A stretch of DNA of 64,000 nt, taken from positions 33,162 through 97,161 of the forward strand of contig CASIBO010000008.1 in assembly GCA_949372755.1 (NCBI GenBank), written 5' to 3'. The stretch comes from an uncultured Pseudomonadales bacterium (GTDB lineage Bacteria; Pseudomonadota; Gammaproteobacteria; Pseudomonadales; Azotimanducaceae). This document shows positions 1,695 to 64,000 of the stretch, piece by piece. Under the pieces are notes generated by a model. It did not search any database. It saw nothing but the letters and a program-made list of their open reading frames with translations, and was not told where the DNA came from. The position numbers and the translations under genes are program-made. How positions within the stretch are numbered: position 1 is the stretch's first letter; each line of letters begins with the position of its first letter.

Positions 1695-1926
1695 GTAATC
1701 CGCTCCTGGACAGTTTCTGCAATCGCGAAGGATAACACGCCCTGAAGGCCTGTGTCGGGGGGCAAGAGCCAGGCTTAAACCCGCCGCGGCGTAATAGGGT
1801 CTTTCACCAGATATTTGGCGAAGGTAAGGCAACGATTGGGGCGCGCCTGTCCTTACAGTCATCGATTTGACTGCCCGAGACGCCTTGCGCGCGTTATGAT
1901 TCAGCCTTGAGCAAGGCCAGGCCTGT

Positions 1927-2979: not shown

Positions 2980-3073
2980 GCCCGCGCCGCGCAACCCCCT
3001 TATGCCAGTAAGGCATGCCGCAAAAACCTTTGTTGCACAATCTTGTCTAGCAGGTGCCTGATGAGCCGGCGGG

Positions 3074-19525: not shown

Positions 19526-19552
19526 AACCTCCTGCAGTTTTATTGATAGAGA

Positions 19553-44055: not shown

Positions 44056-47000
44056 ATGATCCATTTTTTTATTCCAGCGCTTTTTATGGTGGCGAGTCTC
44101 TTGGCATCTGCAGATTCGCGACCGGGCAGAGCGATCATCGATTTCGAGCCAAACAATTCGATCGACGCGGCGGAATCGATTCAGCTTGGACGTGAGGTCG
44201 ACGGCAGCCTTGCGAGTATGTCTGACGTGGATGTCTACATGGTCACGATTGATAAAACCTCCAAGCTATCGCTAGCCTTTCGAAGTGAGCTTCGAGAAAG
44301 TAACGGCTGGAAGTACGAGTTGCTTAATGAAGAGGGCAGTGTCCTGGGTGCTAGTTTTTGTGATTTTACGGATTGCGAAAATGGCGAGACGCTGTCCGTC
44401 GGCGTTCAAAGTGGTACTTATTATTTGAAGGTGCTTCCAGAATCGGATTCATCAAATGAGAGCTTCCTGCCGGATGGCGCCTACTTTTTTACCCTCACGG
44501 CGGTTGATGAATTTAGTACGGTTGAGTTTGAGCCAAACAATAGTACTGAGGTCTCGCAGGCTGTTAATTTTAATAAGACTTACGAAGGTCAGCTCTCAAG
44601 TATGTCCGATGTCGACTTCTACACGTTCGCGATTGATAACACGGCAAAGCTAGAGATCGCCTTTCAAAGTGAGCTTCGAGAAAGTAACGGCTGGAAGTAC
44701 GAGTTGCTTAATGAAGAGGGCGGTGTCCTGAGTGCTAGTTTTTGTGATTTTACGGATTGCGAAAATGGCGAGACGTTGTCCGTCGGGGTTCAGAGCGGTA
44801 CGTATTATTTGAAAGTGCTGCCAGAATCGGATTCCTCAAGTGAAAGTTTCCTGCCGGATGGCGCCTACTTTTTTACCCTCACGGCGGTTGATGATTTTAG
44901 TACGGTTGAGTTTGAGCCAAACAATAGTACTGAGGTCTCGCAGGCTGTTAATTTTAATGAGACTTACGAAGGTCAACTCTCAAGTATGACCGATGTCGAC
45001 TTCTACACAGTCACTGTTGAGAAAACTAAAAAGCTTGAGATCACCTTTCAAAGTGAGCTTCGCGAAAGTAACGGCTGGAAGTACGAGTTGCTTAATGAAG
45101 AGGGCAGTGTCCTGGGTGCTAGTTTTTGTGATTTTACGGATTGCGAAAATGGCGAGACGCTGTCCGTCGGCGTTCAAAGTGGTACTTATTATTTGAAGGT
45201 GCTGCCAGAATCGGATTCATCAAATGAGAGCTTCCTGCCGGATGGCGCCTACTTTTTTACCCTCACGGCGGGTGATGATTTTAGCACGGTTGAGTTTGAG
45301 CCAAACAATAGTACTGAGGCCTCGCAGGCTGTTAATTTTAATAAGACTTACGAAGGTCAGCTCTCAAGCATGTCCGATGTCGACTTCTACACGTTCGCGA
45401 TTGATAACACGGCAAAGCTAGAGATCGCCTTTCAAAGTGAGCTTCGAGAAAGTAACGGCTGGAAGTACGAGTTGCTCACTGAGGAGGGCAGTGTTCTGGG
45501 CGCTAGTTTTTGTGATTTTACGGATTGCGAAAATGGCGAGACGCTGTCTGTCGGCGTTCAGAGTGGGACGTATTTTCTGAAAGTGCTTCCAGAATCGGAT
45601 TCATCAAGTGAAAGTTTCCTGCCAGATGGCGCCTACTATTTTCTTATTGAATTCGGAGACAAGGATGAAGACGGCATATTTGATGAAGATGATAATTGCC
45701 TAAAAACTGCCAATCCGGATCAGCTCGATACCGACACAGATGGTTTTGGGGACGCCTGTGATGACGATGATGACGATGATGGTACAGCCGATACGAATGA
45801 TGCGTTCCCCCTAAACGCGGATGAAACCGTGGACTCAGATGGTGACGGCATTGGCAATAACGCTGATGCTGATGACGATAACGACGGCGTTGAAGACGGT
45901 AATGACGCATTCCCCTTTGATTCGGCGGAAAACTCAGACGCAGACCTTGATGGCGTAGGCGATAACAGTGACGCGTTCCCGCAGGATGCGAATGAGTCTT
46001 TAGATTCTGATCAGGACGAGGTTGGCGACAATGCTGATAATTGCCCAGAGCTTGGCAACACAGATCAAATCGATACCGATGGCGATGCTGCAGGCGATGC
46101 CTGTGATGCAGATGATGACAATGACGGGGTTTCGGACGAGTTAGATTTTTACCCCCTCGATTCAAGTCGAACGAAATATGGCGGGCAGCGGGCGCTGATC
46201 ATTGCTGGCGGTGGCCCGTACGAAGGTAATTTTCTATGGACGGCAACGCAAAACATGGCCAACGTCGCTTACGACGCGCTGCGGACCCAGGGCTTGAGCG
46301 ATGACAATATTGAGTATCTATCCGAGGAAGTTCGGGCGAGGGTAGATGGCTTGCCAACAGTAGCGAATATTAAAAAATCGATCGAAAGTTTGGCGGACGC
46401 CGATGAAGAAAAGATTACAGATGTGCTGATCTATATGGTCGATCATGGCGATGACGGAGTCTTTAAGATCGACGAATCGACCTTTTTAGGGGCGAGTGAT
46501 CTCAAGGTTTGGTTGGATGATCTGCATGCTAAACACGATATACGATCGACCCTCATTTATGATGCCTGCCAATCTGGATCCTTTATTCCTCTGCTGGGTT
46601 CACAAGACGATACCAACCGGTTAGTCATTACTAGCAGCGCAGCGCTAGAAAATGCATGGTTTGCCAGTGATGGCTATTTATCTTTTTCTTACTACTTCTG
46701 GACTATTTTCAGGAGCGGCGGTGACTTCTCCGAGGCCAGTATCGCCGCGAAAAATGCAATGGGTTTCCAGTTCAGGCAGACCGCTAAGTTTGATGCTAAC
46801 GGGAATGGTGTTAGCGATGAAAAAACAGATAAATTACTGATTAAGGACTTTGCGTTTGGGCTGGGCGCCGTGCAAGCAAGTGAGTTCCCTGTTGTGGGTG
46901 CAATTGAAGTTCAACGCGAACTTAATGGCGAGCTGTCAGTGCCAATCACCGTGGCGTCAGTCGGCGGAGGAACTGCCGTTGAAAAGGTCCTGGTGATACT

Positions 47001-50000
47001 CACGACACCAGACAAACCCATTATAGCGCCGGATGAGCCCTTGGTTAATCTGATCGATACCGAGCTGACACAAAATGAAGACGGAAGCTGGGGTGGGGTA
47101 GTAGCCGGGTTCGAGGCGAAAGGCAGCTATGAATTAAGCGTGATCGCCGAGAGTAAGAGTGGACTGACCTCTTTCCCAACAGAAGAAAACACCAATTCTG
47201 TGACGGTGCAGCAAAATATTGGTAGAGATCCAATTGTGCAGTCAGACACGGATAGAGATGGTGTTGCCGATGCGACCGATCCTGATGACGATAATGATAA
47301 TGTGCTGGACGCTGATGATGCTTTCCCAACCGATGCGGCGGAGTCTAAGGATACGGACGGCGACGGTGTTGGAGATAATGCCGACCTGGATGATGATAAC
47401 GATGCGCTGAGCGATGCGGACGAATTGTTGCTAGGGACAGATTCACTGAATGCGGATTCTGACTCGGACGGATTCAGTGATGGTCTGGATGCGCTCCCGT
47501 TAGATGCAACAGAAAGTATTGACACAGATTCCGATGGTGTCGGGAACAACGCTGATCAAGATGATGATGGCGATGGACTTGACGACATTTCTGAAATCCA
47601 ATCAGGCCTAAATCCGCTGTTAACAGACTCAGACAACGATGGTGTCGATGATGGTATTGATGCGTTTCCCTTAGATGGCAGTGAGACTGTCGATTCAGAC
47701 CTGGATGGAATTGGTGATACCCAAGATGCGTTTCCAACAAACCCAGATGAAACGTTAGACCAGGACGGGGATGGTATTGGTGACAACGCGGATGTGTTCG
47801 ATGATGATCCCTTTGAAGCCTATGACACGGATAGTGATGGTCTTGGCAATAACGCAGATCCAGATGACGACAATGATGGATTCTCGGACGATGAAGAGAT
47901 AGCCGCTGGCACCGATCCACTCGGTGCGTCATCCTGCCCAGGCTGTTTTTCTTTCGACGTTGACAACGACGGTGAGGCCAAAGCGTTAACCGATGGCCTG
48001 CTGGTGATCCGACACCTCTTCGGCTTTAGCGATGAGGCGTTAACCGCTGGTGCCGTCGGTAGCAATGCGAGTCGTACAACGCCTGCAGATATTGCAGCGT
48101 ATCTTACAAACGCGGCGACTGAGCTCGATGTCGATGGCGATGATGAGGCGAAAGCCTTAACCGATGGTTTATTACTCATTCGCCAGCTGTTCGGTTTTAC
48201 AGGTAATGCCTTAACGGCAGGCGCCGTCGGTGAGACCGCAGAGCGCGCCACCGCGAGTGCAATTCAGGCGTACATTACGCAACGCTTGCCTGACTCAAAT
48301 GGTTCGGCCAGTGGCTCGGATGACGGCGTGGGCGCTGACACCGGCGATGCTGGCGGCTCAGATACGGCTGGGTCTGACACTGGTGAAGATACGGGCGGGA
48401 CTACCTCTGGCGGCAGTACCGATGGGGGCACCAGCGACGGCGATACTGATTCGGGCGGCGACACCGGCGGCACTGATGGTGGTTCAGCCGGCACAAAAAC
48501 GATTGAGATAGACGTGGTTTATGACCGAGTGCCTTATCGCGCGCCGGAGTGCACGGCCTCAGGTTGCAGCTATCGGGGGCTGGATTACGCCAACATCGTA
48601 CAAAAGCCTGTGCGGTTTGCTAAAGCTCAGGTTTTGGATGCTGATTCGAAGGCGATCGTCACCGACAATCTTCGAACGGACGCCGCAGGACGATTGTCAT
48701 TCTCGGTTGGAGATGATGACGCTTTTATCGTGCGGGTTTATGCTGAGAGCCCAGGGAATGGCTCCGCCAGCTGGGGACTACGGATCGTTGACAACAATGG
48801 TGCTGATCAGGAAGGCAGCTACCCGGTTTATGTTTTGGAATCCCAAGCCGTGGGCGCGAATGCCGTTGACGAGCCGTTAACGCTACGGGCAGCGTCAGGA
48901 TGGGGGCTCACAAAATATACCCAAACGCGATCGGCCGCGCCGTTTGCGATCCTGGATTCAATGGTTTCGGCGACCCTCTACGCGTTAAGCGGCCGCAGTA
49001 CACTGATTTTTGCACCGGTTGATGTCTATTGGAGCATTGCGAATTCCACAGATACGGTTGGAACCTCGTATTATTCTGGTGCTTATATCATGATCCTTGG
49101 CGATGCCGAGGTAGATACCGATGAATATGATGAATCGGTGATCGTTCATGAGTGGGGCCATTATTTTCAATCAATTTTATCGAAAGACGACAGCCTTGGT
49201 GGCAGCCACGGCGGTGGTGATCTGCTGGATATGCGGGTTGCCTTTAGCGAGGGTTGGGCCAACGCTTATTCGGGTCTTGCGACGGCGCGGGATGCCTATA
49301 TCGATACCTCTGGCAGTCAACAAGCGGGTGGGTTCGGCATCGCACTTGAAATTGAACTAACTGAAAGAGAGGGTGCAGTTAAAGGCTGGTATTCCGAAGA
49401 TAGCGCCCAGTATTTGGTCTATGACTTATTTGATGATGGGGCGTCCGATGACGATAATGTCGCGCTGCCAGTCTCTGTGATGATGTCGTCGCTTATCGAT
49501 TTTATGCCCCAGCAGGCTGCGGCAACATCAATATTCAGCTTCAGTGCTGGGGTAATCGATGCGCAACCGAACCAATCCAGTTTGATCATGGCCTTGTTGG
49601 ATCGCGAAAATATTGGCCGAGGCAGGGTGCAAATTGATTCCCTTGGCTCAGGGGAAACCAATTCGGCAGGCGAATACGCTGCGGTTGAGAATATTGAGGC
49701 GATGACATTGCCGGTTTATACCGTGCTTGATAGCAGTCTGATCTCAGCAGACATGTGCCAAGATGTCTTGCCGGCGTCTGCGCCACGAGTATTCGGTATC
49801 GATAATAAACTGGGGGCTTATCGCTTTGCTCAGTTTGAAATATCTCAGGCAGGCAACTATACCGTCCGACTCACTACGACAGCGAAACCCTTGGGCGCTG
49901 CTAGCGATCCTGATTTTGGCGTTTACAATGCACAGGGCTTGATCGGCCCTCAGCTTAACGAGCTAACGGGAGCCGTGGATCTAGAGTCCCACATCTTGCA

Positions 50001-50106
50001 GTTGGCGAAAGGTCAATATTGGGCTTGGGCACACGATTACAACAATTATCAGCGAGGCAGTAATTCCGGTCGGTATTGCCAGCGTTTGGAGGTCGTGCCG
50101 CAATGA
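44056..50106 (+). CDS. giant secreted multidomain protein: 4x PPC-like repeats, TSP3 repeats, clan-CD C13-like peptidase, TSP3 repeats, dockerin-like pair, Gly/Ser/Thr/Asp linker, HExxH metallopeptidase, C-terminal PPC-like domain
   Basis: Signal peptide MIHFFIPALFMVASLLASA. FEPNNS...SDVD.Y repeats. Clan-CD dyad VDHGDDG (His codon 46444-46446) and YDACQSGSF (Cys codon 46567-46569). HEWGH at 49147-49161 with a downstream EGWANAY. Confidence 0.85.
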   Translation: MIHFFIPALFMVASLLASADSRPGRAIIDFEPNNSIDAAESIQLGREVDGSLASMSDVDVYMVTIDKTSKLSLAFRSELRESNGWKYELLNEEGSVLGASFCDFTDCENGETLSVGVQSGTYYLKVLPESDSSNESFLPDGAYFFTLTAVDEFSTVEFEPNNSTEVSQAVNFNKTYEGQLSSMSDVDFYTFAIDNTAKLEIAFQSELRESNGWKYELLNEEGGVLSASFCDFTDCENGETLSVGVQSGTYYLKVLPESDSSSESFLPDGAYFFTLTAVDDFSTVEFEPNNSTEVSQAVNFNETYEGQLSSMTDVDFYTVTVEKTKKLEITFQSELRESNGWKYELLNEEGSVLGASFCDFTDCENGETLSVGVQSGTYYLKVLPESDSSNESFLPDGAYFFTLTAGDDFSTVEFEPNNSTEASQAVNFNKTYEGQLSSMSDVDFYTFAIDNTAKLEIAFQSELRESNGWKYELLTEEGSVLGASFCDFTDCENGETLSVGVQSGTYFLKVLPESDSSSESFLPDGAYYFLIEFGDKDEDGIFDEDDNCLKTANPDQLDTDTDGFGDACDDDDDDDGTADTNDAFPLNADETVDSDGDGIGNNADADDDNDGVEDGNDAFPFDSAENSDADLDGVGDNSDAFPQDANESLDSDQDEVGDNADNCPELGNTDQIDTDGDAAGDACDADDDNDGVSDELDFYPLDSSRTKYGGQRALIIAGGGPYEGNFLWTATQNMANVAYDALRTQGLSDDNIEYLSEEVRARVDGLPTVANIKKSIESLADADEEKITDVLIYMVDHGDDGVFKIDESTFLGASDLKVWLDDLHAKHDIRSTLIYDACQSGSFIPLLGSQDDTNRLVITSSAALENAWFASDGYLSFSYYFWTIFRSGGDFSEASIAAKNAMGFQFRQTAKFDANGNGVSDEKTDKLLIKDFAFGLGAVQASEFPVVGAIEVQRELNGELSVPITVASVGGGTAVEKVLVILTTPDKPIIAPDEPLVNLIDTELTQNEDGSWGGVVAGFEAKGSYELSVIAESKSGLTSFPTEENTNSVTVQQNIGRDPIVQSDTDRDGVADATDPDDDNDNVLDADDAFPTDAAESKDTDGDGVGDNADLDDDNDALSDADELLLGTDSLNADSDSDGFSDGLDALPLDATESIDTDSDGVGNNADQDDDGDGLDDISEIQSGLNPLLTDSDNDGVDDGIDAFPLDGSETVDSDLDGIGDTQDAFPTNPDETLDQDGDGIGDNADVFDDDPFEAYDTDSDGLGNNADPDDDNDGFSDDEEIAAGTDPLGASSCPGCFSFDVDNDGEAKALTDGLLVIRHLFGFSDEALTAGAVGSNASRTTPADIAAYLTNAATELDVDGDDEAKALTDGLLLIRQLFGFTGNALTAGAVGETAERATASAIQAYITQRLPDSNGSASGSDDGVGADTGDAGGSDTAGSDTGEDTGGTTSGGSTDGGTSDGDTDSGGDTGGTDGGSAGTKTIEIDVVYDRVPYRAPECTASGCSYRGLDYANIVQKPVRFAKAQVLDADSKAIVTDNLRTDAAGRLSFSVGDDDAFIVRVYAESPGNGSASWGLRIVDNNGADQEGSYPVYVLESQAVGANAVDEPLTLRAASGWGLTKYTQTRSAAPFAILDSMVSATLYALSGRSTLIFAPVDVYWSIANSTDTVGTSYYSGAYIMILGDAEVDTDEYDESVIVHEWGHYFQSILSKDDSLGGSHGGGDLLDMRVAFSEGWANAYSGLATARDAYIDTSGSQQAGGFGIALEIELTEREGAVKGWYSEDSAQYLVYDLFDDGASDDDNVALPVSVMMSSLIDFMPQQAAATSIFSFSAGVIDAQPNQSSLIMALLDRENIGRGRVQIDSLGSGETNSAGEYAAVENIEAMTLPVYTVLDSSLISADMCQDVLPASAPRVFGIDNKLGAYRFAQFEISQAGNYTVRLTTTAKPLGAASDPDFGVYNAQGLIGPQLNELTGAVDLESHILQLAKGQYWAWAHDYNNYQRGSNSGRYCQRLEVVPQ
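44143..45655 (+). repeat. four tandem 384-bp (128-aa) near-identical coding repeats
   Basis: The FEPNN start recurs at 44143, 44527, 44911 and 45295. Off-frame ORFs 44456-44653 and 45224-45421 are almost identical, which indicates a 768-bp higher-order periodicity. Confidence 0.9.
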
Positions 50107-50771
50107 AAAACCTATTGATGATGCTCTCGGTTCTGGCATTGCTCGGTTGCAAGGCTCTTGATTCAACGGTGAGTGCGAACCCTGAGGGCCCAGTTGGGGC
50201 GGAGGTCATTCCCGGAACCGACACTACAACCTCTAAGGCGACTAGCCCGTTGACCAACCCGCTGCCGGTCAGCGATGGTGAGGTTAGCAGGCGTGCTAAC
50301 GGCAATGGTCCGTTGTGGACGATCCGCTCTGAGCAAATTGCGGCGCGATCGCAAGGTCACAGCGTAAAAACCCAATCACGAACCGCCAAGCCGCAAGGCC
50401 CCTTTACGGTGCGGTATGTCTTAGAGAGCTGGACCCCTGATGACCACCGTTTGGTGGTAGAAGTGCAAAGTAATCAAGTCATTAGTGATTGGTGGCTTGA
50501 TTTGCCGCAAATATCTGAAAAGCTCGAAACAGCTCAGTTTGCTAAGAAACATAATGCGACAGAGCCGGGCGCGGCGGAGTCGAGGACTTTTAGGTTGGGT
50601 ACACTGCCCCGGGCCAACCGATTGTTGTTGACCGTCCGAGCATTGGTTTCGGGTGTAACGACCTCAAAAACGGTTGTGATACCCCTAAGGTCGCGCTTAA
50701 ACCAAGGCGTTCGAACCTGTGATGAGGCTAGGACTGATTGCGTCGTGGCGTTGCCGGGAACGCTTCGATGA
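50103..50771 (+). CDS. lipoprotein of unknown function
   Basis: MKNLLMMLSVLALLGC lipobox. The ATG overlaps the stop of the giant gene (ATGA). Confidence 0.6.
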   Translation: MKNLLMMLSVLALLGCKALDSTVSANPEGPVGAEVIPGTDTTTSKATSPLTNPLPVSDGEVSRRANGNGPLWTIRSEQIAARSQGHSVKTQSRTAKPQGPFTVRYVLESWTPDDHRLVVEVQSNQVISDWWLDLPQISEKLETAQFAKKHNATEPGAAESRTFRLGTLPRANRLLLTVRALVSGVTTSKTVVIPLRSRLNQGVRTCDEARTDCVVALPGTLR

Positions 50772-50849
50772 GAATTTTCTTCGATGCTTAAAGCGGACGT
50801 TGCTTAATGGGCGCCAAGCTATTTCAGGATCATTTTGATATATTTAGGC

Positions 50850-50877
50850 TTGCAACCGGAGCGCTCCATGGTAGAAT
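50850..50877 (+). promoter_or_regulatory. candidate sigma70 promoter
   Basis: TTGCAA, a 16-nt spacer, then TAGAAT with TGn immediately upstream (extended -10). It lies about 75 bp upstream of the 50953 start. Confidence 0.45.
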
Positions 50878-50952
50878 CGGAAAAGGATTTGTGTCCATTT
50901 ACGACCGATTGATAGGTATGTTTAGCCAATATAATTGAAGCTTAGAGGAACT

Positions 50953-54609: not shown

Positions 54610-54613
54610 TTTG

Positions 54614-55063
54614 ATGACGCGTTCGCGTAATTTACACGAGTTGATTTGGGGCGCCTTGATAGGCGCCCTTTTTCTTTGGGGTGGCGCTTCCTGGTATTGG
54701 GCTCTGACGCCTAGCTTTAGTTGGGTCATGTTGCAGTGGCCAATGTTTTTTGCAGTGTGTGTGGCCAGCCCTGTTCTAGAGGAATATGTGTTTAGGGGGC
54801 TTCTTTATGAAGCGGTTGATGCACGCTGGCCTCGGGTCTGGCCGGCGGGTGCACGCTTATCGATCAGCTTCGCAAATGCCATGACGACCTGGCTGTTTGT
54901 GATAGCGCACATGATCGCGCGGGATCCAATCGCGGGCGCTTTAGTGCTTCTACCCTCGATCTATTTAGGGTTGTTACGGGCGCGTTATGGTGGAATAGGC
55001 GTCTGCATGCTCGTCCATGCGGCCTGGAACATTGGGTGGTTCAGTTTGTTTCCGCCGGCGTAG
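54614..55063 (+). CDS. CPBP-family (CAAX-like) glutamic-type intramembrane protease, small form
   Basis: All three CPBP motifs are present: EEYVFRG, FVIAHM and HAAWN. There are four predicted TM helices. The gene starts 5 nt after the stop of the surface-protein gene. Confidence 0.8.
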   Translation: MTRSRNLHELIWGALIGALFLWGGASWYWALTPSFSWVMLQWPMFFAVCVASPVLEEYVFRGLLYEAVDARWPRVWPAGARLSISFANAMTTWLFVIAHMIARDPIAGALVLLPSIYLGLLRARYGGIGVCMLVHAAWNIGWFSLFPPA

Positions 55064-55155
55064 AATTTGGAAGTCCCAGATTCTACGCTATAGTCAGTTA
55101 GCCAAGAATTTGTCACAATGACGGCGTCGCGTCTGTCACTAAAAAGGAATCTCTT

Positions 55156-55455
55156 ATGCCATTTTTTATGAGACTCGGTCTGCTCTGGTTGCTGAGCGCC
55201 TTTTGCTCAGCGTCGTTCGCCAGTATCCCGGCTGGGCGAATCAATGCGATCAATGCGCAGTTAGCGGCAGGGCAGTATCAAGCAGCAGAAAAAGCAACTT
55301 TAGTTCTACTCGAATCCCAGCAACTCTCAACCGATGATGTGAACACCTTAGAGGCTCTGGCGAGTGGTTTCACGGCTGCAGGACTTCGTGACCAAGCCGG
55401 GACGCTGTTATCCAAAGGCTGCAGAACTGTTAGGTGCACCGCAAACCAGCAGTGA
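55156..55455 (+). CDS. signal peptide plus helical-repeat fragment, probably the displaced N-terminus of the CHAT protein
   Basis: MPFFMRLGLLWLLSAFCSASFA signal peptide. The ORF overlaps the next ORF by 92 nt in a different frame, and the repeat-like sequence continues across the junction. Confidence 0.45.
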   Translation: MPFFMRLGLLWLLSAFCSASFASIPAGRINAINAQLAAGQYQAAEKATLVLLESQQLSTDDVNTLEALASGFTAAGLRDQAGTLLSKGCRTVRCTANQQ

Positions 55456-57379
55456 TCGAGCAACGTTGCTGCGTATTGGTGCGAGCTTGCAAGCTTTAAA
55501 CCTACGAAGTCAGGCCGCGGGAATTCTGACTCGGGGCATTCGAATTACAGGTAAAGATGCAGCCGATAGTTTAAATGCCGCTGGGTTTCAGTCGCTGGGT
55601 GATCTTGCCTTTGAAACCGGTGATCTAGAGGCTGCAGATTCCGCTTATACCAATTCTGAAACGGCCCTGGAGGCTGATGACCTTCAAGCGCGTGCGGCTT
55701 TATTGGTGCGGCAAATTAAGCTCGCAGTCGCCAGCACGGATGCCGTTCAAACCCGAGACTACTATAAAGCCTATCAAGGCCTACTCTTACAATTAACGGG
55801 TGATACAAGTCTTGCCCGAATGAACTTAAACGTTGCGGCAAGCCTGATGGCATCTGGCGAGTCAACCTGGGCGCCCGATGTTACGCTGCTCATCGAACAG
55901 TCAGCGATGATTGGTTCGGCGGACGCGCAGCTGATGTCCGAGGTGGAACAAATGCGCGGTCAGGTGGCCGCGCTCTCGGGTCAGCCGGATGCGGCGCTGA
56001 AGATGCTCAGGCGCGCACTCGCGGGACTGGGCTCGGACGCAACGCCTGCTCAAACCTATCGTCTGTATTGGCAGATCGGTAAGCTTCAGGCTGAGGCCGG
56101 TGAAATCGATGCGGCATTAAAAAATTACGAGCGCGCCATCGCAAATCTAGACCGGATTCGCGGAGAGTTGTTGCAGGGCAGCACCTTGGTGTTTACCGAA
56201 AGGGTGCTACCGGTTTATCAAGGCTACATCGAGTTGTTATTAGAGAAAGCCAAGGTGCCTGGTCAGGAGGGCAAGTGGTTAGGGCAAGTGCAACAAACCC
56301 TAGAAGGCCTTAATGCAGCAGAAATTTTAGATTATTTTGACGACAACTGCGTGCTACCTCGCGATGTGATGAGTCTTAGCAACACGGCGGCCGGGACGGC
56401 GGTGTTGTACCCGATTACGCTAGGCACGCGTCCCGTACTGCTCGTGCGAACTGCGAACGGCATCTTCCGATTTGATCTGGCGGTGGGTAACGCCGAACTA
56501 AAATCGATGGCGCTGGCTTTTCGCGAGGCCATCACAAATCCCGAAACATCCCTGAGCGCTTATCAAGCCCAAGCGAGCGCACTCTTCACGGCGCTTTTAG
56601 GGCCTGCTCAGGGCTTGATCGAGCGATCTTCGATTACGACGCTGGTCACGGTGCCAAGTGCGTATTTACGGCTTGTGCCCATGGCGGCGCTGCACGATGG
56701 CGAAGACTTCCTAGTCAACCGGTATCAGTTAGCCACCACTCTTGGGCTGCAATTGACGGAAAATGCGAGCGTTGACAATGTCAACAGCTCGGCTTTTATC
56801 GGCGGCGTGTCGGACGCGGTACAAGGGTTTGTTTCCCTGCCGGGTGTTGAAACCGAACTGGCAGAACTGAAAGGCGCGTTATCTGCAACGCCGCTGCTGA
56901 ATCGAAATTTTTCAGTCGCCAATGTCTCAAGACGCTTAAGTTCTGGCAATGACAGCATTGTTCATCTAGCGACGCATGGTTATTTCGATGGTGATCATGC
57001 CAATTCATTTCTGTTAGCGCATGATGACAAAATCACGCTCGATCGGTTGCAAAGCACAGTGGGGGCTCGGCGTTTCACGGGTAATCCCTTAGACCTTTTA
57101 GTGCTCAGTGCGTGCGAAACCGCGAAGGGAGACGAGCGGGCGGCGCTGGGGTTGGCCGGGGTGTCTCTCAAGGCTGGTGCGCGCAGCACGGTGGCATCCC
57201 TCTGGCCCATTGCGGACGCGGCAACTGCCATGCTGATGAAGCGCTTCTATGAAGAATTGCGCGCCGGAAAAAGCAAAGCGGCGGCGCTTCAGTCGGCCCA
57301 GCAGATGCTGTTGTCCGACCCCGAATGGGCGCATCCAAATTATTGGAGCCCCTACCTACTCATCGGCAATTGGCTCTAG
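55364..57379 (+). CDS. TPR-like repeat / CHAT domain protein (caspase-fold clan CD peptidase)
   Basis: The C-terminal CHAT signature is HLATHGYF...LLVLSACETAKG...ASLWPI.D. The N-terminal region is helical-repeat. Confidence 0.8.
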   Translation: MVSRLQDFVTKPGRCYPKAAELLGAPQTSSDRATLLRIGASLQALNLRSQAAGILTRGIRITGKDAADSLNAAGFQSLGDLAFETGDLEAADSAYTNSETALEADDLQARAALLVRQIKLAVASTDAVQTRDYYKAYQGLLLQLTGDTSLARMNLNVAASLMASGESTWAPDVTLLIEQSAMIGSADAQLMSEVEQMRGQVAALSGQPDAALKMLRRALAGLGSDATPAQTYRLYWQIGKLQAEAGEIDAALKNYERAIANLDRIRGELLQGSTLVFTERVLPVYQGYIELLLEKAKVPGQEGKWLGQVQQTLEGLNAAEILDYFDDNCVLPRDVMSLSNTAAGTAVLYPITLGTRPVLLVRTANGIFRFDLAVGNAELKSMALAFREAITNPETSLSAYQAQASALFTALLGPAQGLIERSSITTLVTVPSAYLRLVPMAALHDGEDFLVNRYQLATTLGLQLTENASVDNVNSSAFIGGVSDAVQGFVSLPGVETELAELKGALSATPLLNRNFSVANVSRRLSSGNDSIVHLATHGYFDGDHANSFLLAHDDKITLDRLQSTVGARRFTGNPLDLLVLSACETAKGDERAALGLAGVSLKAGARSTVASLWPIADAATAMLMKRFYEELRAGKSKAAALQSAQQMLLSDPEWAHPNYWSPYLLIGNWL

Positions 57380-57391
57380 GAGGGGACACGC

Positions 57392-58972
57392 ATGAAACGC
57401 ATACAAACGATATTAACCACCTGTCTTCTGGCGCTGTCTTTAATCACCAGCAGTCAGGTTGCAGCTGATAATCAAGATCTTGCTAGTGGTATTGTTCTAA
57501 AAGCAGTGACGGTGACCGATGCCACAGTCTTTAGCGAGACCGACCTAAACACTGCAATGGCACCTGCGATCGGTAAAACCGTCTATATTGAAGACATCCT
57601 AGGGATGGTCGACGCCGTTACCGCGCTTTACGTCGAGGCCGGCTACATCACCTCTGGCGCTATTCTGCCTAATCAAGATGTTGCTGATGGCCGTATTACG
57701 ATTGCGGTCGTTGAAGGGCAGCTAAATGGCGTGATCATCAATAGCGCAGGGCGTTTAAAAACGGCTTTCATTGAGTCTAAGATTAAGGCCACCGCCAGCG
57801 GCCCGCTCAATCTTGCGGATTTGCAGAGGGCGATCTCTCGACTTGAGGCGGAACCAACAATTTCCCATGTGCGGGGCGATTTAAAGCCGGGCGACACGCG
57901 GGGCACGTCGATTTTGGATCTTGAAGTCGTCGAAGCCGATGCGTTTAAAATTTTGGTTGGCGCCGACAATTACAAAAGCCCCAGTGTGGGTGAGGGCCAA
58001 GCCGTTGTCTCGCTTGCACATTTAAACCTGCTGGGCTTCAACGATCAGCTGAATGTTAGTGCTCAGCGGAGTGATGGCGTGGATGCCATATCGGTTCGCT
58101 ACGATGTACCCATTTCGATCTTACGATCTCGCCTGGCGGTCTATCATAGCCAAGGTGACACCTTGGTGGTTGAAGAGCCTTTTGATGAAATTTTTCTCGA
58201 AAGCGAGACCGACACGTCCGGGATTCAACTTTCCTCAACTTGGCGAGAAGACAATGGGCGGTCTTGGCGAACGAATCTGTCTTGGGAAACCAAGGAGAGC
58301 CTCACGACGTTGCTCGGTTTGCCCTTTGACTTTTCGCCCGGGTCTCGCCTGGGTGTGACCGAAGCCAGTGTGCTCGGCTTCAATGTTGAATATAGCCAGC
58401 GCGGCGATGGTATGGGATTCATGCTTCGTGCTGGCTTGCGTTCAGGCAGCGATGACAAGGGCCAGGGCAATGCAGCCGATGAGGGTGATTTCAGTCTCTA
58501 TCAGGTGCAAACCCAGTGGATTAAGCGTTTAAACCAAGATCCGCTGCAACCCGCGTGGCTGCTCAACTTTAATCTCAATTATCAGGAAACGAGCGACACG
58601 TTACCGGCATTTGAACGCATGGGCTTGGGCGGTCATGGCACGGTGCGGGGTTTTCGGGAAAATCGTTGGCTAAAAGACTCGGGGCTGACCGCATCGCTGA
58701 TGCTCAGTGCGCCGCTGCTGGAAGCGGGTAGTCAAAACGGTATCGCCGTGCGTGCGATGCTGTTTTACGACTACGGTCGAGGGGAGAACTCGGTGGCAGC
58801 GCTTAATGTTGATACCGAGGTTTCGCTTAGAAGCGCAGGCTTTGGGTTAACCGCCGACTATCAAAAATTGAAGTTTCGAATTGAACGCGCGCTGCGCCTG
58901 AACAAGAAAGACAAACTCGGCAATGCCTTACAAGACAGCGGTATCCATGTGGGAGTGACGTATGAACTCTAA
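57392..58972 (+). CDS. ShlB/FhaC/HecB-family two-partner secretion outer-membrane transporter (TpsB)
   Basis: Signal peptide, POTRA-like N-terminus, a beta-barrel with the GLGGHGTVRGF motif, and a terminal YEL. Confidence 0.88.
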   Translation: MKRIQTILTTCLLALSLITSSQVAADNQDLASGIVLKAVTVTDATVFSETDLNTAMAPAIGKTVYIEDILGMVDAVTALYVEAGYITSGAILPNQDVADGRITIAVVEGQLNGVIINSAGRLKTAFIESKIKATASGPLNLADLQRAISRLEAEPTISHVRGDLKPGDTRGTSILDLEVVEADAFKILVGADNYKSPSVGEGQAVVSLAHLNLLGFNDQLNVSAQRSDGVDAISVRYDVPISILRSRLAVYHSQGDTLVVEEPFDEIFLESETDTSGIQLSSTWREDNGRSWRTNLSWETKESLTTLLGLPFDFSPGSRLGVTEASVLGFNVEYSQRGDGMGFMLRAGLRSGSDDKGQGNAADEGDFSLYQVQTQWIKRLNQDPLQPAWLLNFNLNYQETSDTLPAFERMGLGGHGTVRGFRENRWLKDSGLTASLMLSAPLLEAGSQNGIAVRAMLFYDYGRGENSVAALNVDTEVSLRSAGFGLTADYQKLKFRIERALRLNKKDKLGNALQDSGIHVGVTYEL

Positions 58973-61358
58973 AATGACTTTTCGATCGATCGCCTATTCG
59001 GCAACGTGTTCTGCTTGGTTGCTTGCCAGTTCAGCGGTTATCGCCGATATCACGCTTCAGGAAACGGGCGAAACCTTAACCGGGGACATGACCATCAGCC
59101 AAGAGATGGGGCTGACCCAAGGTACAAACTTGTTGCACACCTTTTTAGCTTTTAACGTTGATCCGGGTGAATCAGCGACCTTTACGGGTAGCAATGCCAT
59201 TACTAATATTGTTGCGCGGGTAAGTGGTGATGGGGCCTCCCAAATCGATGGGTTATTACGCTCAACCATTACCGATGCGAACTTGTTCCTGATTAATCCC
59301 AACGGGGTTGCGTTTGGGGCGGGCGCCAGTATTGATATTAACGGCAGCCTGCACATCTCAACAGCGGACAGCATTGTCTTCGGGGATGATTCCAGGCTGT
59401 TGGTGTCGGACACCGGTGCCAGTGGCTTTACCGCTGCGGCGCCATCGGCCTTTGGTTTTTCAGGGGTTGGGGCTGGCATCACCTTCGACGGCACGATGAT
59501 TTCAACCCTCAACACGGATCGCGCGGCAGGCCTTTCCCTAGTGGGCGGTGATATTACGTTGTCTGAGAGCTCGATTACGTTTGCCGGTGGCACCATTGAC
59601 CTGATTGCGACCCAGGGCGAGCAGGATGTGGCCATCACGATGGCAGATCGCAGCTTTGACAACACGGCCCTAGGCGCGATTACGATTACCAATGCAGAAT
59701 TCGTGGCCGGCAAGGTTGATCTGGACGTCAGTGGCGATGCGGCAGGGCAGTTATCGCTTGCCGGCGCCAACGTGACCTTAGAGCGCGCGTTCGTGTTTTC
59801 CGATACCGAAGGCACCGGCACCGGTGGCGCCATTAATGTGCTTGCGACCGAGGCGTTAACGTTAATCGAGGGTGCGCGGATTACCACCGATACCACAGGT
59901 GGCGGCGCGGGCGGTGACCTGGTCATCCTGGCTGGCGATGTGTCGCTATCGGGCACCAACACAGCACTTGCCGCAAGTACGATTTCGGCTGGAGGCATTG
60001 CCGGCAGCATTGACGTGACAGCCAATAGTATTGACATCCTTGACGGCGCTCAGGTGAGCTCGGTAACCAGTACGGCCAGTCCGGGCGGTGATATTACCCT
60101 CAACACCGGTGATTTAACGATGGCGTCTGGTGGCCAAATCTCGGGGCAAGCAACCTCGCGCGGGCAAGGCGCTGATGTGGTCATTAACGCAACCGAATCA
60201 ATTGTCATTGATGCCACCGGTACCAACCCAGGCGAAGAGACTGGGATCCGGGTCGACAGCATTAATTTCTTACCGTTCTTCGTGGGCGGGGATGCGGGCG
60301 ATATTGTCATTACAGCCCCCAGCTTAACGCTAAAGGGCAGTGCGGTGATTGCAGCGCAAGCGTCCTTGCCCAGTTCAGGCGCACCTGGCGCCATCACGTT
60401 GAATGTCGAGCAACTGGCAATTGAAGGCGGTAGCTCTGTTTCAACCTTATCGAGCGCAAGTGCCGATGCGGGCGCAATCTCCGTTAATGCGAGCACCGTA
60501 TCCCTTATCGGCGCGGGTTCTGGGTTTAACTCAACCACGCGGCGAAGCGGTGGGGGCGGCAGCATTGTCGTTATGGCCGATAATTTCACGATGAGCGGCG
60601 GCGCAACGGCAGATACCTCGACAGAAGGCGCTGGGGCTGCCGGTAATATCAGTATTGATGTCACGGGTTCGGTCAACTTGACGGATGCGAGCTCTGAACT
60701 TGCCAGTCGGTCAAGCGGTGAAGGCAGGGGAGGTAATATCAGTGTCTCGGGTGAATCCTTAACGTTTAGTAACAACGGCGTGCTGTCGGTCACCGCAAGT
60801 GGCGCCGGAGACGCCGGTAACATCAGCCTTATGGCCCTGAACCGGCTGGAAGTATTGGATGGCGCGCAGGTTCAAACCAATGCTGAAAACTCGGGTGGGG
60901 GTAATATTGATGTTGCGGTCATCGATACCATCTATTTGCGCAACGGTACCCTGACGGCTTCCGCTGGTGGCGCTGAGGGCAGTAGCAACGGCGGTAATAT
61001 CAACATCGACCCCAGATTCCTGATTTTAGACAACGCAAGCATTGTGGCCCAGGCGGTTGCAGGCAATGGCGGTGTGATCGAATTGGTCGCAGACAACTAT
61101 ATCGCCGACATTAACAGCTTCTTGGATGCCTCTAGCGAGCTTGGGAATGATGGCGAGGTGCGCATTACAACACCTTATAACTCCATCTCTGGCGTTTTAG
61201 GCACGCTCAACGCGAACTTCGATGCGGTGGCGCAGATCGCAACCGATGCGTGCTCCGCGCGTAATTTAGAGCAGCGTAGCAGCCTGATCGTTGAGCAGAA
61301 ACGCGGCAACCTTAATGCGCCGGGTGATTTAAGGCCGATTCAGGGCGAAGAGTGCTAG
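58962..61358 (+). CDS. filamentous-hemagglutinin N-terminal (TPS) domain protein, beta-helical TpsA exoprotein
   Basis: The TPS domain reads GTNLLHTFLAFNV..GESATF....IVARVSG...SQIDG......NLFLINPNGVAFG. A Gly/Ala/Ser/Thr-rich beta-helix repeat region follows. It overlaps tpsB by 11 nt. Confidence 0.85.
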   Translation: MNSKMTFRSIAYSATCSAWLLASSAVIADITLQETGETLTGDMTISQEMGLTQGTNLLHTFLAFNVDPGESATFTGSNAITNIVARVSGDGASQIDGLLRSTITDANLFLINPNGVAFGAGASIDINGSLHISTADSIVFGDDSRLLVSDTGASGFTAAAPSAFGFSGVGAGITFDGTMISTLNTDRAAGLSLVGGDITLSESSITFAGGTIDLIATQGEQDVAITMADRSFDNTALGAITITNAEFVAGKVDLDVSGDAAGQLSLAGANVTLERAFVFSDTEGTGTGGAINVLATEALTLIEGARITTDTTGGGAGGDLVILAGDVSLSGTNTALAASTISAGGIAGSIDVTANSIDILDGAQVSSVTSTASPGGDITLNTGDLTMASGGQISGQATSRGQGADVVINATESIVIDATGTNPGEETGIRVDSINFLPFFVGGDAGDIVITAPSLTLKGSAVIAAQASLPSSGAPGAITLNVEQLAIEGGSSVSTLSSASADAGAISVNASTVSLIGAGSGFNSTTRRSGGGGSIVVMADNFTMSGGATADTSTEGAGAAGNISIDVTGSVNLTDASSELASRSSGEGRGGNISVSGESLTFSNNGVLSVTASGAGDAGNISLMALNRLEVLDGAQVQTNAENSGGGNIDVAVIDTIYLRNGTLTASAGGAEGSSNGGNINIDPRFLILDNASIVAQAVAGNGGVIELVADNYIADINSFLDASSELGNDGEVRITTPYNSISGVLGTLNANFDAVAQIATDACSARNLEQRSSLIVEQKRGNLNAPGDLRPIQGEEC

Positions 61359-61592
61359 CTGGATAGACCTTGCTCTCAAAGGGTGGTTAAAAGCTGCGAA
61401 GCCTCTTAGCAGTGAACGAAAAAAGATCTATAGGCTTCAATTGCGCGTGATCAGTGTCTTCATGGCTTAATTTAAAGCGAGCGGTGGTGGTCGCTAAGCC
61501 GCCAAGCCCTTCCGAGCACAGTTCCTAGAGTGCATTAACACCTAAGGACTTTTATTCTATGCCAGCCTACCCGATCAGATTGAGACATTGGA

Positions 61593-64000
61593 GTGAACGC
61601 TATCAACAAGCCGACTAAGCCGATTGGGATTAAAAGCCAACTAAAGGTCTTATTGGGATTAACGGTATTAATTGGCAGTTTTTTTTCCTCAGCTGTCTCC
61701 GCGGCCGATGCTTTCGAGCCAAACGATGCGCTGAGTCAAGCCACGCTATTGGTGGTTGGTAACCCTAATCCGCAGCCACATACTTTAGATCCTGACAAGG
61801 ACGTTGACTGGTTCAGGTTTAATGCACAGTTTTTCGAAGTCTATGACATCAGGACACTTGGGCTCGGCGCAACAGTTGACCTTGCTATTGAGGTTTTCGA
61901 TGAGAATGGTGATCGCGTTGGTGAAGTTGAAGACTCCGGTTTTAAAGGCGAGGCAGAGGCGTTTTCTTTTCGTGCACCGTCAACTGGTACATTTTACCTC
62001 AAGGTATATGACTATTATTGTATTAATGGTGGTGATGGCTGCGCCGCGCCAAGAGGCGATGAAGCAGCCTATAGCATTCTGATCTTTATACCTATCGGCG
62101 CAGTGGGTGGCGCTGATTTGGCGATCGTTCATGAATCTGCGACGGAGGGTGTTGTAGGGACCCCATTCTCACTTGGTATTGAAGTGACAAATAATGGCGG
62201 CCAAGAAGAAGACGACACAGCGGACAACCTCTTAATCCTTACCTATTCTGAGCCGCAATTGCCAAAGCCTGCAAGCCTGCCTGAAGGATGCGAGGGCGAG
62301 GTAGGGCTCGTGATGTGTACTAAAGACCAGTTGGTCGCCGAGGATCGTTTTGGTTACACCCTCAATTTTGAATTTTCGGATGTTGGCAAAGTTCGGTTCA
62401 CCAGCACCGTGGCCGCCTTCGAAAATCCAGATTACACCCTGCAGCAAGCGGATGATCAGTGGTCAAATAATGTCGTTGACGAGGTCGTGACTATTAGCGA
62501 GGGCTCGGGCGGCGGCATTACGGATAGCGATAATGATGGTGAACCCGATAGCACTGATAACTGTCCCAATACCGCTAATGCAAACCAAACAGACACCGAT
62601 AACGATGACGAGGGCGATGCCTGCGATAAGGACGATGATGGGGATGACATTGCGGATAGCGCCGACAATTGTCCCCTGATCAAAAACACAAACCAAACCA
62701 ATACGGATGATGACAGCAAGGGTGATGCCTGCGACACCGACGATGATGACGACGCGTTGCTCGACGGCGCGGACAATTGTCCCCTGATTGCTAACGCTGG
62801 CCAAGCTAACAACGATGATGATGCGAACGGCGACGCGTGTGATGCCGACGATGATAACGACGCAATACTGGATGAGGTGGACAATTGCACCTTGATTGCG
62901 AATGCGGAACAGGCGGATGCGGATCTTGATGGAGATGGGAATGCGTGTGACACAGACATTGATGGCGACCAGGTGCTCAACAATGTCGACAATTGCCCGC
63001 TGATTGAAAACCAAAATCAAGCCGATGAGGACCTTGATGGGGATGGCGATGCGTGTGATGCCGATATTGACGATGACCAGGTGTTCAACGACGCCGACAA
63101 TTGCCCCTTTGACCCGAATACCGATCAAGCTGATTTAGATAAAGACAATACGGGCGACGCGTGTGATGCCGATATCGACGGCGATGCTGTGCTCAATGGG
63201 GATGACAACTGCAAGCTGATCGTGAATGCGGATCAAGCCGATGAAGATGAGGATGGGCTCGGGGATGCGTGTGATGAGAATAGCGCCCTCGACAGTGACG
63301 AGGACGGAATAAACGACGATCTGGACAATTGCCCGAATGATGCCAATGCCGATCAAGCGGATGCGGATAATGATGGTGTGGGCGATATTTGTGATACCAG
63401 TCCAAATGATTCCGATGATGACGGCATTGATGATGATGTAGACAACTGCCCATTAGTTGATAACAGCGATCAGTTTGATTTTGATGATGATGCGGTGGGG
63501 GATGCCTGTGATGCTGATGCCGATGGTGACTCGATTGGTGATGCGGAGGATTTGTTTCCCTTTGACGCGAGAGGGGGGCTGGACGCGGACAATGATGGTA
63601 TGGCCGATGAATGGGAGGCGCTCAACGGTTTAGATAGTGTGGATGCCGCTGATGCGAGCTCGGATGCGGACGGTGATGGGTTAACAGCGCTCGAGGAGTT
63701 TGAGGGCGAAACCGACCCCAACCAGTCGGATCTGCTGGCCCAGAGTCTTACGTTTGAGGCGCCGAAATTCTTGGTGATCGGTCAAGCCGCAACGATCAAG
63801 CTTTTTTACGTCGCGGCAGATGGTCAAAGCACCACGGGACTTGCATTTAGAGTGCATTACGATAAAGCGGTCCTAAACGGCTTGATTGGTGATTATTTCT
63901 CAGTGTTTCAAGAGGGTGGGATCCGCCTTGGCGGGGTGGCATTCGACGATATCGAAGATCTCGACAATGACCCGCTTACCGACACCTATGAGGTGTTCGC
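61593..64000 (+). CDS. secreted PPC-domain / canonical TSP3-repeat / cohesin-like protein (3' end outside the window)
   Basis: This ORF is not in the supplied track because it has no stop in the window, so I translated it by eye. It has a signal-like VLLGLTVLIGSFFSSAVSAADA, a PPC motif FEPND...DVDWFRF, about 10 repeats of DNCP...N..Q.D.D.DG.GDACD, and then a FRVHYDKAVL cohesin-like segment. The start codon is uncertain: GTG at 61593, with an in-frame TGA at 61581. Confidence 0.75.
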   Translation, partial: MNAINKPTKPIGIKSQLKVLLGLTVLIGSFFSSAVSAADAFEPNDALSQATLLVVGNPNPQPHTLDPDKDVDWFRFNAQFFEVYDIRTLGLGATVDLAIEVFDENGDRVGEVEDSGFKGEAEAFSFRAPSTGTFYLKVYDYYCINGGDGCAAPRGDEAAYSILIFIPIGAVGGADLAIVHESATEGVVGTPFSLGIEVTNNGGQEEDDTADNLLILTYSEPQLPKPASLPEGCEGEVGLVMCTKDQLVAEDRFGYTLNFEFSDVGKVRFTSTVAAFENPDYTLQQADDQWSNNVVDEVVTISEGSGGGITDSDNDGEPDSTDNCPNTANANQTDTDNDDEGDACDKDDDGDDIADSADNCPLIKNTNQTNTDDDSKGDACDTDDDDDALLDGADNCPLIANAGQANNDDDANGDACDADDDNDAILDEVDNCTLIANAEQADADLDGDGNACDTDIDGDQVLNNVDNCPLIENQNQADEDLDGDGDACDADIDDDQVFNDADNCPFDPNTDQADLDKDNTGDACDADIDGDAVLNGDDNCKLIVNADQADEDEDGLGDACDENSALDSDEDGINDDLDNCPNDANADQADADNDGVGDICDTSPNDSDDDGIDDDVDNCPLVDNSDQFDFDDDAVGDACDADADGDSIGDAEDLFPFDARGGLDADNDGMADEWEALNGLDSVDAADASSDADGDGLTALEEFEGETDPNQSDLLAQSLTFEAPKFLVIGQAATIKLFYVAADGQSTTGLAFRVHYDKAVLNGLIGDYFSVFQEGGIRLGGVAFDDIEDLDNDPLTDTYEVF

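Follow-up and report, generated by a model that had tools for sequence, protein, structure and literature searches.

An eight-gene export locus of marine Pseudomonadales with a JDVT-CTERM/MrtJ-type sorting pair, an exported CHAT protease beside two-partner secretion genes and a predicted thermolysin-fold metalloprotease

JDVT-CTERM proteins carry a C-terminal sorting tag with a single invariant Cys, a near-invariant DP nine residues on, a leucine-rich helix and an Arg cluster, and they are the proposed clients of the protease MrtJ (Haft 2023, bioRxiv 10.1101/2023.06.07.544157). According to the accessible text of that in silico study, which proposes sorting from genome comparisons only, a genome typically encodes a single client, whose gene adjoins MrtJ in 16 of 17 genomes, and no other neighbour gene is consistently associated with the pair. 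Sorting was shown in the related MYXO-CTERM/myxosortase system (mBio 2025, PMC11980579). For two-partner secretion (TPS), an association with CHAT proteases is absent from a review of these systems, according to which maturation-protease genes appear not to belong to TPS operons, and a full-text literature search for CHAT with TPS terms found no publication. Here we describe a locus from an uncultured Pseudomonadales bacterium (Azotimanducaceae; contig CASIBO010000008.1) in which genes of both kinds stand side by side. It occupies positions 44056-64000 of the 64,000-nucleotide stretch analysed, hereafter the window, and consists of eight consecutive genes on the plus strand (g1-g8), all of whose products are exported or envelope proteins.

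We lean towards reading this block as composite, with three or four export modules, each sufficient in itself, retained together by one lineage and equipping its surface and secretome. The gene content, the domain identities, the catalytic motifs, the conservation of gene order and the independence of the modules elsewhere were all observed. New here are the divergent JDVT tag, the TPS locus with an exported CHAT protease and the unannotated thermolysin-fold family; the parts are otherwise of known kinds. An initial annotation of the window had stated that no described system combines these parts, which is correct. The genes are as follows.

g1, 44056..50106, plus strand: Sec-exported multidomain protease of 2016 aa; the same 2016-aa product is called in the related contig L001.
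g2, 50103..50771, plus strand: lipoprotein of 222 aa, of no known family.
g3, 50956..54609, plus strand: surface protein of 1217 aa; HYR, Ig-like and choice-of-anchor-U domains, sorting tag at the C-terminus.
g4, 54614..55063, plus strand: CPBP/Rce1-like intramembrane protease of the glutamic type (MrtJ), predicted to sort g3.
g5, 55156..57379, plus strand: exported TPR-CHAT cysteine protease, 740 aa if intact; frameshifted in the window.
g6, 57392..58972, plus strand: TpsB outer-membrane transporter with POTRA_2 and a ShlB/Omp85 barrel.
g7, 58962..61358, plus strand: TpsA of 798 aa.
g8, 61593..64000 (cut by the window end), plus strand: PPC/TSP3 protein; open reading frame of about 913 aa from stop to stop in L001.

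Export signals were read by eye: a signal-like peptide at the N-terminus, a lipobox or several transmembrane segments were recognised in each product. Together with the domain assignments, they bear out the initial annotation, which had listed eight consecutive same-strand genes for exported or envelope proteins. A run of eight exported products is far beyond chance. The intergenic gaps from g1 to g8 measure -4, 184, 4, 92, 12, -11 and 234 nt, and this spacing suggests g1-g2, g3-g4 (possibly on through g5-g7) and g8 as units. A promoter and terminator scan of the block gave counts not above those of shuffled sequence.

Related contigs were found via CHAT and MrtJ homologues, and their amino-acid identities to the window are listed below.

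L001: 445-kb ENA contig, about 99%.
L010: Fram Strait Pseudomonadales metagenome-assembled genome (MAG), 72-95%.
L002, L003 and L016: related contigs, 40-68%.
L015: Ca. Azotimanducaceae / HTCC2089 MAG, 40-68%.
L006 and L007: related contigs, 35-64%.

The order and strand of g1-g8 are kept in every related contig of the HTCC2089/Azotimanducaceae type that is long enough to span the block. Conservation of the gene order in related genomes, which the initial annotation had proposed as a check, was thus found: L001, L010, L002, L015 and L006 all keep the eight genes. Across the block, conservation is highest in the TpsA gene g7 and lowest in MrtJ and g2, and g3 has orthologues in every related locus.

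Outside this clade, the modules are separate. CHAT homologues of 31-45% identity recur across phyla beside a TpsA or TpsB gene, in one or the other orientation, namely in L008, L009, L024 (the cyanobacterium Oscillatoria) and L025. Of the metagenome loci, 20 have 3 kb or more of flanking sequence on both sides, and in 16 of these the CHAT gene is accompanied by TPS genes. Homologues of g2, g3 and the C-terminal domain of g1 (g1C) occur in none of 80 metagenome CHAT loci, and a MrtJ-like gene in one (L085). The latter, a CPBP gene at 7345-7803 of L085, is found 2 kb downstream of CHAT, which itself forms a divergent pair with the TpsB and TpsA genes. Two genes, one for a BAX-inhibitor-like membrane protein and one of 149 aa, separate the MrtJ-like gene from CHAT. 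No Cys-tagged client adjoins the MrtJ-like gene, whose presence there is probably a coincidence. At the more distant MrtJ-like loci L017 and L018, homologues of g5-g7 are missing; such distant MrtJ contexts rest on these two loci and on the accessible text of Haft's survey, as a genome scan with the closer MrtJ alignment (A5) returned mainly the same clade and the diverse alignments (A3, A4) were too variable. The g1C family, finally, stands alone beside housekeeping genes in Kangiella and Variovorax. Only one of the 80 metagenome CHAT loci has a TSP3 (thrombospondin type 3) protein nearby. This locus (L026, 41-10329) represents an intermediate lineage whose CHAT is 43% identical to that of the window. 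The gene that lies 83 nt upstream of its CHAT-TpsB-TpsA genes encodes a product of at least 1842 aa in which Ig-like domains and 8 TSP3 repeats accompany a C13-like domain; MrtJ, g3 and g1C are absent. We also observed CHASE2-domain genes adjoining CHAT-TPS in L009 (6604-7800) and L024 (1-2121), the Oscillatoria neighbour being a CHAT-CHASE2 fusion. Since the flanks of the block are partly syntenic as well and its parts are independent elsewhere, conserved order alone is no proof of a single system.

The g3 and g4 genes are a variant member of the described JDVT-CTERM/MrtJ system. The g4 product scores 81.5 bits against the MrtJ model NF033192 (cut-off 75), and its close homologues are named MrtJ by NCBI. 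All three CPBP motifs (EExxxR, FxxxH and HxxxN) are present, and their core residues (EE...R, H, H...N) do not vary among 9 close and 61 diverse homologues. The g4 gene starts 4 bp past g3, and the client and the protease are adjacent in the same way in all related loci. The C-terminal tail of g3 has the form GGGCSVSEGGPGDFGL-TM-RKR (TM, transmembrane helix), and the end of g3 reads KKVGGGCSVSEGGPGDFGLVFLALLGALGLFRKR...

g3 sorting tag, 54481..54606, plus strand: tripartite, with KKVGGGC-SVSEGGPGDF, a hydrophobic helix and RKR.

The tag has the single Cys and the Asp at +9, and its motif is DF, not DP. It scores 19.9 bits against the JDVT-CTERM model NF033191, below the cut-off of 27. The tripartite arrangement is conserved in the g3 tails of 12 of the 12 related contigs examined, with PGDF as the motif, or ADAG in L006. 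The pair thus resembles the described system in a protease above the MrtJ cut-off with its three catalytic motifs, in a client gene immediately upstream and in a client tag made of a single-Cys motif, a hydrophobic helix and a basic cluster. It differs in the low tag score, in having DF (or the ADAG of L006) where the family has DP, and in its location between protease and TPS genes, neighbours that the accessible text of Haft's survey does not name. Because the tag is conserved and MrtJ is adjacent, even with DF and a score below the cut-off, we assign g3-g4 to the described system and regard the tag as a clade-specific variant. A surface protein with a C-terminal sorting tag and a CPBP protease had both been annotated initially and are upheld here, but the two had gone unrecognised as a described pair.

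The next three genes encode a CHAT protease and a TPS pair. The CHAT domain of g5 matches PF12770 with 194.9 bits over model positions 2-289 of 289, and H603/H607 and C653 are invariant in 26 homologues. The intact homologues have a signal-like N-terminus and conserve the motifs HLATHG, LSACETA and a terminal WSPYLLIGNW. The TPR-CHAT assignment of the initial annotation therefore stands, but the reading frame is not intact in the window. With L001 as the reference (99.5% identical), one extra C at about 55412 (within 55405-55415; TTATCCAAAGG in the window, TTATCAAAGG in L001) splits the first 86 codons, which hold the signal peptide, from the TPR-CHAT body and leads to a stop at about codon 99. 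Intact CHAT homologues are 733-747 aa long and all unbroken, P0001-P0003 having 740 aa. The frameshift is either a sequencing error or a strain-specific pseudogene. Exact-sequence look-ups of the CHAT and TpsB products of the window gave no match, the CHAT query having come, with a wrongly listed start, from the frameshifted gene.

The TpsB and TpsA assignments are confirmed by a POTRA_2 domain (73.7 bits) and a ShlB domain (94.3 bits) in g6, and by a TPS domain in g7 (PF05860, 101.5 bits; TIGR01901, 67.2 bits) with an NPNG motif. The end of g6 and the start of g7 share 11 nt. In the signal-peptide region of g6, a +1 and a -1 indel relative to L001 lie 11 nt apart at 57449 and 57460; they compensate each other and alter about 4 codons. 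After the TPS domain, g7 continues with a Gly/Ser/Ala-rich repeat region that is consistent with a beta-helix, and it has the C-terminal motif Cys...SSL...PGDL...Cys. No domain, toxin or otherwise, was detected by Pfam in the C-terminal 558 aa. We observed a recurrent pattern (...SS.LG.DG.V.I, LLR..C, SSF.V.GRGGLP..P) at the C-termini of CHAT-linked TpsA proteins, including g7 (61150-61355) and those of L008, L024, L025 and some 20 metagenome loci; a last Cys often follows it. Within this CHAT-linked set, a strict regular expression recovers 11 of 20 complete TpsA proteins and most others are recognised by eye; no Pfam model covers the pattern.

The g6-g7 pair is like the type Vb TPS systems FhaB/FhaC and HMW1/HMW1B in its TpsB with POTRA_2 and a ShlB barrel, its TpsA with a TPS domain and NPNG, and its overlapping genes. 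The two C-terminal Cys residues of the g7 TpsA recall the tether of HMW1. Unlike these systems, the locus has an exported TPR-CHAT protease gene in the same string, and its TpsA is short and has no toxin or prodomain.

The g1-g2 genes encode a multidomain protease and a coupled lipoprotein. From its N-terminus, the 2016-aa g1 product comprises a signal peptide, 4 PPC-like units, TSP3 repeats, a C13 legumain-like domain and further TSP3 repeats. The second half consists of an EF-hand/dockerin-like pair, an acidic Gly/Ser/Thr linker, a predicted thermolysin-fold metalloprotease and a PPC-like end. The parts with defined coordinates are listed below.

g1 tandem repeat, 44215..45642, plus strand: 384-bp unit, 3.7 copies, 90% matches.
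g1 Peptidase_C13 domain, 46189..46935, plus strand: legumain-type, caspase-haemoglobinase fold, with His (VDHGD) and Cys (DACQSG) motifs.
g1 EF-hand/dockerin-like pair, 47935..48291, plus strand: DxDxDGxxxALTDGLLxIRxLFGF.
g1 C-terminal domain (g1C), 48442..50103, plus strand: beta-sandwich, predicted thermolysin-fold Zn-metalloprotease (HEWGH and a downstream Glu) and PPC/collagen-binding-like domain.

The tandem repeat encodes about 4 near-identical 128-aa PPC-like units and accounts for a local drop in GC content. One such unit matches Pfam PPC below threshold (E = 0.023, 16 bits, cut-off 25.9), and the TSP_3 and TSP3_bac scores of g1 are above their cut-offs. Both catalytic domains of the dual-peptidase protein described initially are borne out. 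Peptidase_C13 is matched with 40.9 bits in the full protein and 47.2 bits on the isolated segment (cut-off 22.8), over the central model positions 110-189 of 258 only. The DHG and DACQSG sequences align to the catalytic His and Cys motifs of plant asparaginyl endopeptidases (legumains).

The second catalytic domain lies in g1C, which is 554 aa long, includes HEWGH and gave no Pfam, NCBIfam or PDB sequence match and no Pfam M4 hit. An AlphaFold2 model of g1C reached a predicted local distance difference test (pLDDT) value of 92.8. Foldseek with this model returned ProA, thermolysin, aureolysin, LasB and vibriolysin at probability 1.0, with a template-modelling score of about 0.6 and about 10% identity, and matched its last ~100 residues to the collagen-binding/PPC domains of ColG. 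The H, E, H and downstream E are invariant in 50 family sequences. At least 1575 homologues were found, in Kangiella, Aliikangiella, Arenicella, Variovorax and many metagenomes; most of them stand alone, are 520-830 aa long and carry PKD or CarboxypepD_reg domains. As judged from the model, g1C is a thermolysin-fold metalloprotease of a family without a Pfam model. It shares with the M4 proteases thermolysin, LasB, ProA and aureolysin the predicted fold, the HExxH and downstream Glu, and a C-terminal PPC/collagen-binding-like domain. In contrast to them, it has about 10% identity and no M4 sequence match, no FTP/PepSY propeptide was detected, it is fused behind an EF-hand-like pair (in the closest lineages also behind a C13 peptidase), and a dedicated lipoprotein gene follows.

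Only the EF-hand-like pair and the metalloprotease are universal among g1 orthologues. The C13 domain is restricted to the closest lineages and is absent from the orthologues in L002, L015 and L006, and the PPC-like N-terminal units occur in L001 and L010 only. No other part of g1 is as well conserved between orthologues as the EF-hand-like pair (51-92% identity); in L006 the pair is 51% identical and the catalytic domain 37%. The L006 orthologue (872-5026, 1384 aa) was seen to have a Reprolysin_5-type domain in place of C13 and the PPC-like repeats. Between lineages, the N-terminal "warhead" modules of g1 are exchanged, and its core, made up of the EF-hand-like pair and the predicted thermolysin-fold domain, stays the same.

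The coupled lipoprotein of the initial annotation is likewise supported: g2 has an LLGC lipobox, and its start overlaps the end of g1 by 4 nt (ATGA), which would couple their translation. It has two conserved C-terminal Cys residues and no known family in a Pfam search, and it follows g1 in L010, L012, L002, L015 and L006. In Kangiella koreensis, a 176-aa lipoprotein gene lies directly after the g1C homologue. A profile-profile comparison of g2 with the small lipoprotein after the Kangiella and Variovorax g1C homologues gave a probability of 1%, which is not significant, and a g1C protein with a g2-like partner beyond the clade is a positional analogy only.

The last gene shares modules with g1 and g3. 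Behind its signal peptide, the g8 product has a PPC domain (31.5 bits) and then ten TSP_3 repeats (2.5e-63), in agreement with its first description as a PPC/TSP3 protein. These are followed by a domain shared with g3 (from 63732) and by one EF-hand/dockerin-like segment, read beyond the window end in L001. At codon 9 of g8 (61600-61625), we observed the 8-nt unit AAGCCGA[CT] twice in the window and three times in L001 (~16465-16500). The extra copy shifts the frame at the start of g8 in L001, where the gene caller set the start past the signal peptide; the difference could be slipped-strand variation or assembly noise. The counterpart of the shared domain lies near the start of g3.

g3 N-terminal domain, homologous to the g8 C-terminal domain, 51040..51528, plus strand: tblastn cross-hit and joint alignment A9.

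In L007, tblastn aligned g8 with the g3 N-terminus at 33% identity (E = 9e-7). The EF-hand-like module is common to g1, as a pair, and g8, which ends with a single copy in all lineages. TSP3 repeats are present in g1 and g8, and short TSP3-like acidic stretches were noted by eye in g3. Of the recurring modules first reported, the TSP3 repeats of g1 and g8, the g3/g8 domain and the g1/g8 EF-hand-like module therefore stand, and the N-terminal PPC units of g1 remain below threshold. Dockerin-like repeats and cohesin-like domains, which had also been named, were not confirmed. The g1 EF-hand-like pair matches Pfam Dockerin_1 with E = 0.13 and 13 bits (cut-off 22.9; search at E <= 10). The g3/g8 domain has no cohesin match by Pfam (E <= 10) or PDB profile search, and its AlphaFold2 model, built from the two window sequences, has a pLDDT of 42.5, too low for a fold reading.

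Non-cellulosomal cohesin-dockerin pairs and the large TSP3-repeat calcium-binding proteins of marine bacteria are the natural comparison for these modules. The block is like them in its acidic TSP3 repeats, its tandem DxDxDG...hydrophobic-helix module and a beta-rich domain that recurs in partner proteins. It is unlike cohesin-dockerin pairs in reaching neither the Cohesin nor the Dockerin_1 threshold and in a calcium loop that, by eye, is apparently one residue longer than that of canonical dockerins.

If the block is a composite of export modules, the parts may work as follows. The g1 protein would be exported by Sec and then presumably secreted. Its TSP3 repeats would be calcium-binding spacers, its PPC-like units would bind substrate, and its core would be the EF-hand-like pair with the thermolysin-fold zinc protease. 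The C13 domain might serve in autoprocessing or as a second catalytic domain; the former role is suggested by caspase-like domains known as in-cis processing peptidases of large secreted proteins. The g2 lipoprotein would be a dedicated partner of g1, as an inhibitor, a chaperone or an anchor. After export, g3 would be modified at the single Cys of its tag, cleaved in the membrane by MrtJ and displayed on the surface, as proposed for JDVT-CTERM and with MYXO-CTERM as the precedent. Transport of the TpsA fibre through the outer membrane would fall to TpsB, and the exported TPR-CHAT protease may have TpsA or its partners as targets, either in the periplasm or on the cell surface. As another calcium-binding protein, g8 would likewise be secreted. 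In this scheme, we infer the routes by which g1 and g8 leave the cell, what g2 and CHAT do, and whatever physical docking there may be among the proteins.

Some findings weigh against so loose an arrangement. All eight genes are strictly kept down to 35-64% identity, beyond many syntenic regions. The domain common to g3 and g8, and an EF-hand-like module in g1 and g8 that is better conserved than the catalytic domain, argue for a conserved protein-protein interaction linking at least g1, g3 and g8. L026 also hints at a tie between the TSP3/C13 giant protein module and the CHAT-TPS module. A possible though tentative proposal in this direction is that the exported TPR-CHAT protease is the dedicated third partner of a TPS subclass found across phyla, an in-locus enzyme for TpsA maturation or release of a kind missing from classical TPS operons. 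The TpsA proteins of such a subclass would be marked by a conserved terminal motif resembling Cys...SSF-V-GRGGLP. The triad would here have been recruited, with the MrtJ-sorted adhesin and the EF-hand-tagged proteases, into one calcium-dependent surface-assembly locus.

A related alternative, which we consider rather doubtful, is an integrated, cellulosome-like surface system that carries proteases. In this model, g3 would be the MrtJ-anchored scaffold onto which g1 and g8 dock via their calcium-dependent EF-hand/dockerin-like modules; docking could also occur onto the g8 copy of the shared domain, and the TpsA fibre and CHAT would take part in assembly, maturation or release. It accounts well for an eight-gene order that is invariant in five lineages, for the tight spacing of g3-g7, for the g3/g8 domain, for an EF-hand-like module that exceeds the rest of g1 in conservation and ends g8 in all lineages, and for L026, which joins a TSP3/C13 giant protein to CHAT-TPS. 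However, the Dockerin_1 match is sub-threshold (E = 0.13), and cohesin went undetected by Pfam, PDB profile search and modelling (pLDDT 42.5); with both identities unconfirmed, the integrated model is left without that mechanism. Moreover, every module functions elsewhere without the others, the flanks are partly syntenic as well, and the CHAT gene is frameshifted in the window and hence dispensable here, unless the frameshift is a sequencing error. The initial annotation had proposed that the proteins act together; the conserved order and the recurring modules agree with this, and a single system is unproven, its parts being independent elsewhere.

It is unlikely that the adjacency is fortuitous, with unrelated export genes gathered at a permissive site and kept by synteny in a slowly rearranging family. 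Such an origin would fit the separable modules, the promoter and terminator scans, which were uninformative beyond chance, and the flanks, which are syntenic upstream in L015 and downstream in L006. It does not fit a downstream flank that varies (SLH/SLT versus a leucine-rich-repeat protein) while the block stays intact, nor the modules common to g1, g3 and g8, and all eight products being exported would be unlikely in a random neighbourhood. Upstream of the block lie metabolic genes, namely SDR, luciferase-like oxygenase, zinc alcohol dehydrogenase and DUF938 methyltransferase genes and a PNPOx-like gene on the opposite strand; DUF938 and PNPOx flank the block both in the window and in L015. 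Downstream of g8, a leucine-rich-repeat protein gene is found in L001 and L006 (19504-20427 in the latter), and in L005 an SLH gene is followed by an SLT gene; SLH also occurs at the contig end of L015. The L001 gene, at 19343-22223 and just past the window end, encodes a 1357-aa leucine-rich-repeat protein after g8. This position may hold a ninth, lineage-variable member of the exported set. Because the flanks are partly syntenic, the block looks like a vertically inherited, non-mobile chromosomal region. As the initial annotation had noted for the left border, no integrase or transposase was found among the upstream genes (tRNA genes and border repeats were not specifically searched). A mobile genomic island was rejected on the metabolic genes upstream, the same upstream genes in L015 and the lack of mobility genes among those found.

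It is highly improbable that CHAT-TpsB-TpsA is a contact-dependent inhibition or polymorphic-toxin locus, or an anti-phage defence related to the Craspase TPR-CHAT: TPS systems do deliver CdiA toxins, caspase-like peptidases are known releasing peptidases of polymorphic toxins and the type III-E CRISPR protease is likewise called TPR-CHAT, but the TpsA has just 798 aa, with no Pfam-detectable domain in its C-terminal 558 aa and no small immunity-like gene after it, CHAT carries a signal peptide, and PADLOC gave weak BovA hits only (~21 bits), with no CRISPR genes nearby. The type III-E CRISPR TPR-CHAT or defence identity was rejected on these weak hits, the TPS neighbours and the signal peptide.

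We therefore keep to a composite of export modules retained together as the favoured reading. The locus is a marine example of JDVT-CTERM/MrtJ with a divergent tag and a large, well-conserved client, and it offers an experimental handle on MrtJ sorting. The repeated link between exported TPR-CHAT and TPS, left out of TPS reviews, makes testable the question of an enzyme that matures or releases TpsA. At least 1575 predicted thermolysin-fold metalloproteases without a family model, usually annotated as hypothetical or PKD-domain proteins, are represented here by one with a dedicated lipoprotein partner. The locus suggests how a lineage of oligotrophic marine gammaproteobacteria may arm its surface with calcium-stabilised proteases and adhesins, for example for the scavenging of particles and proteins.

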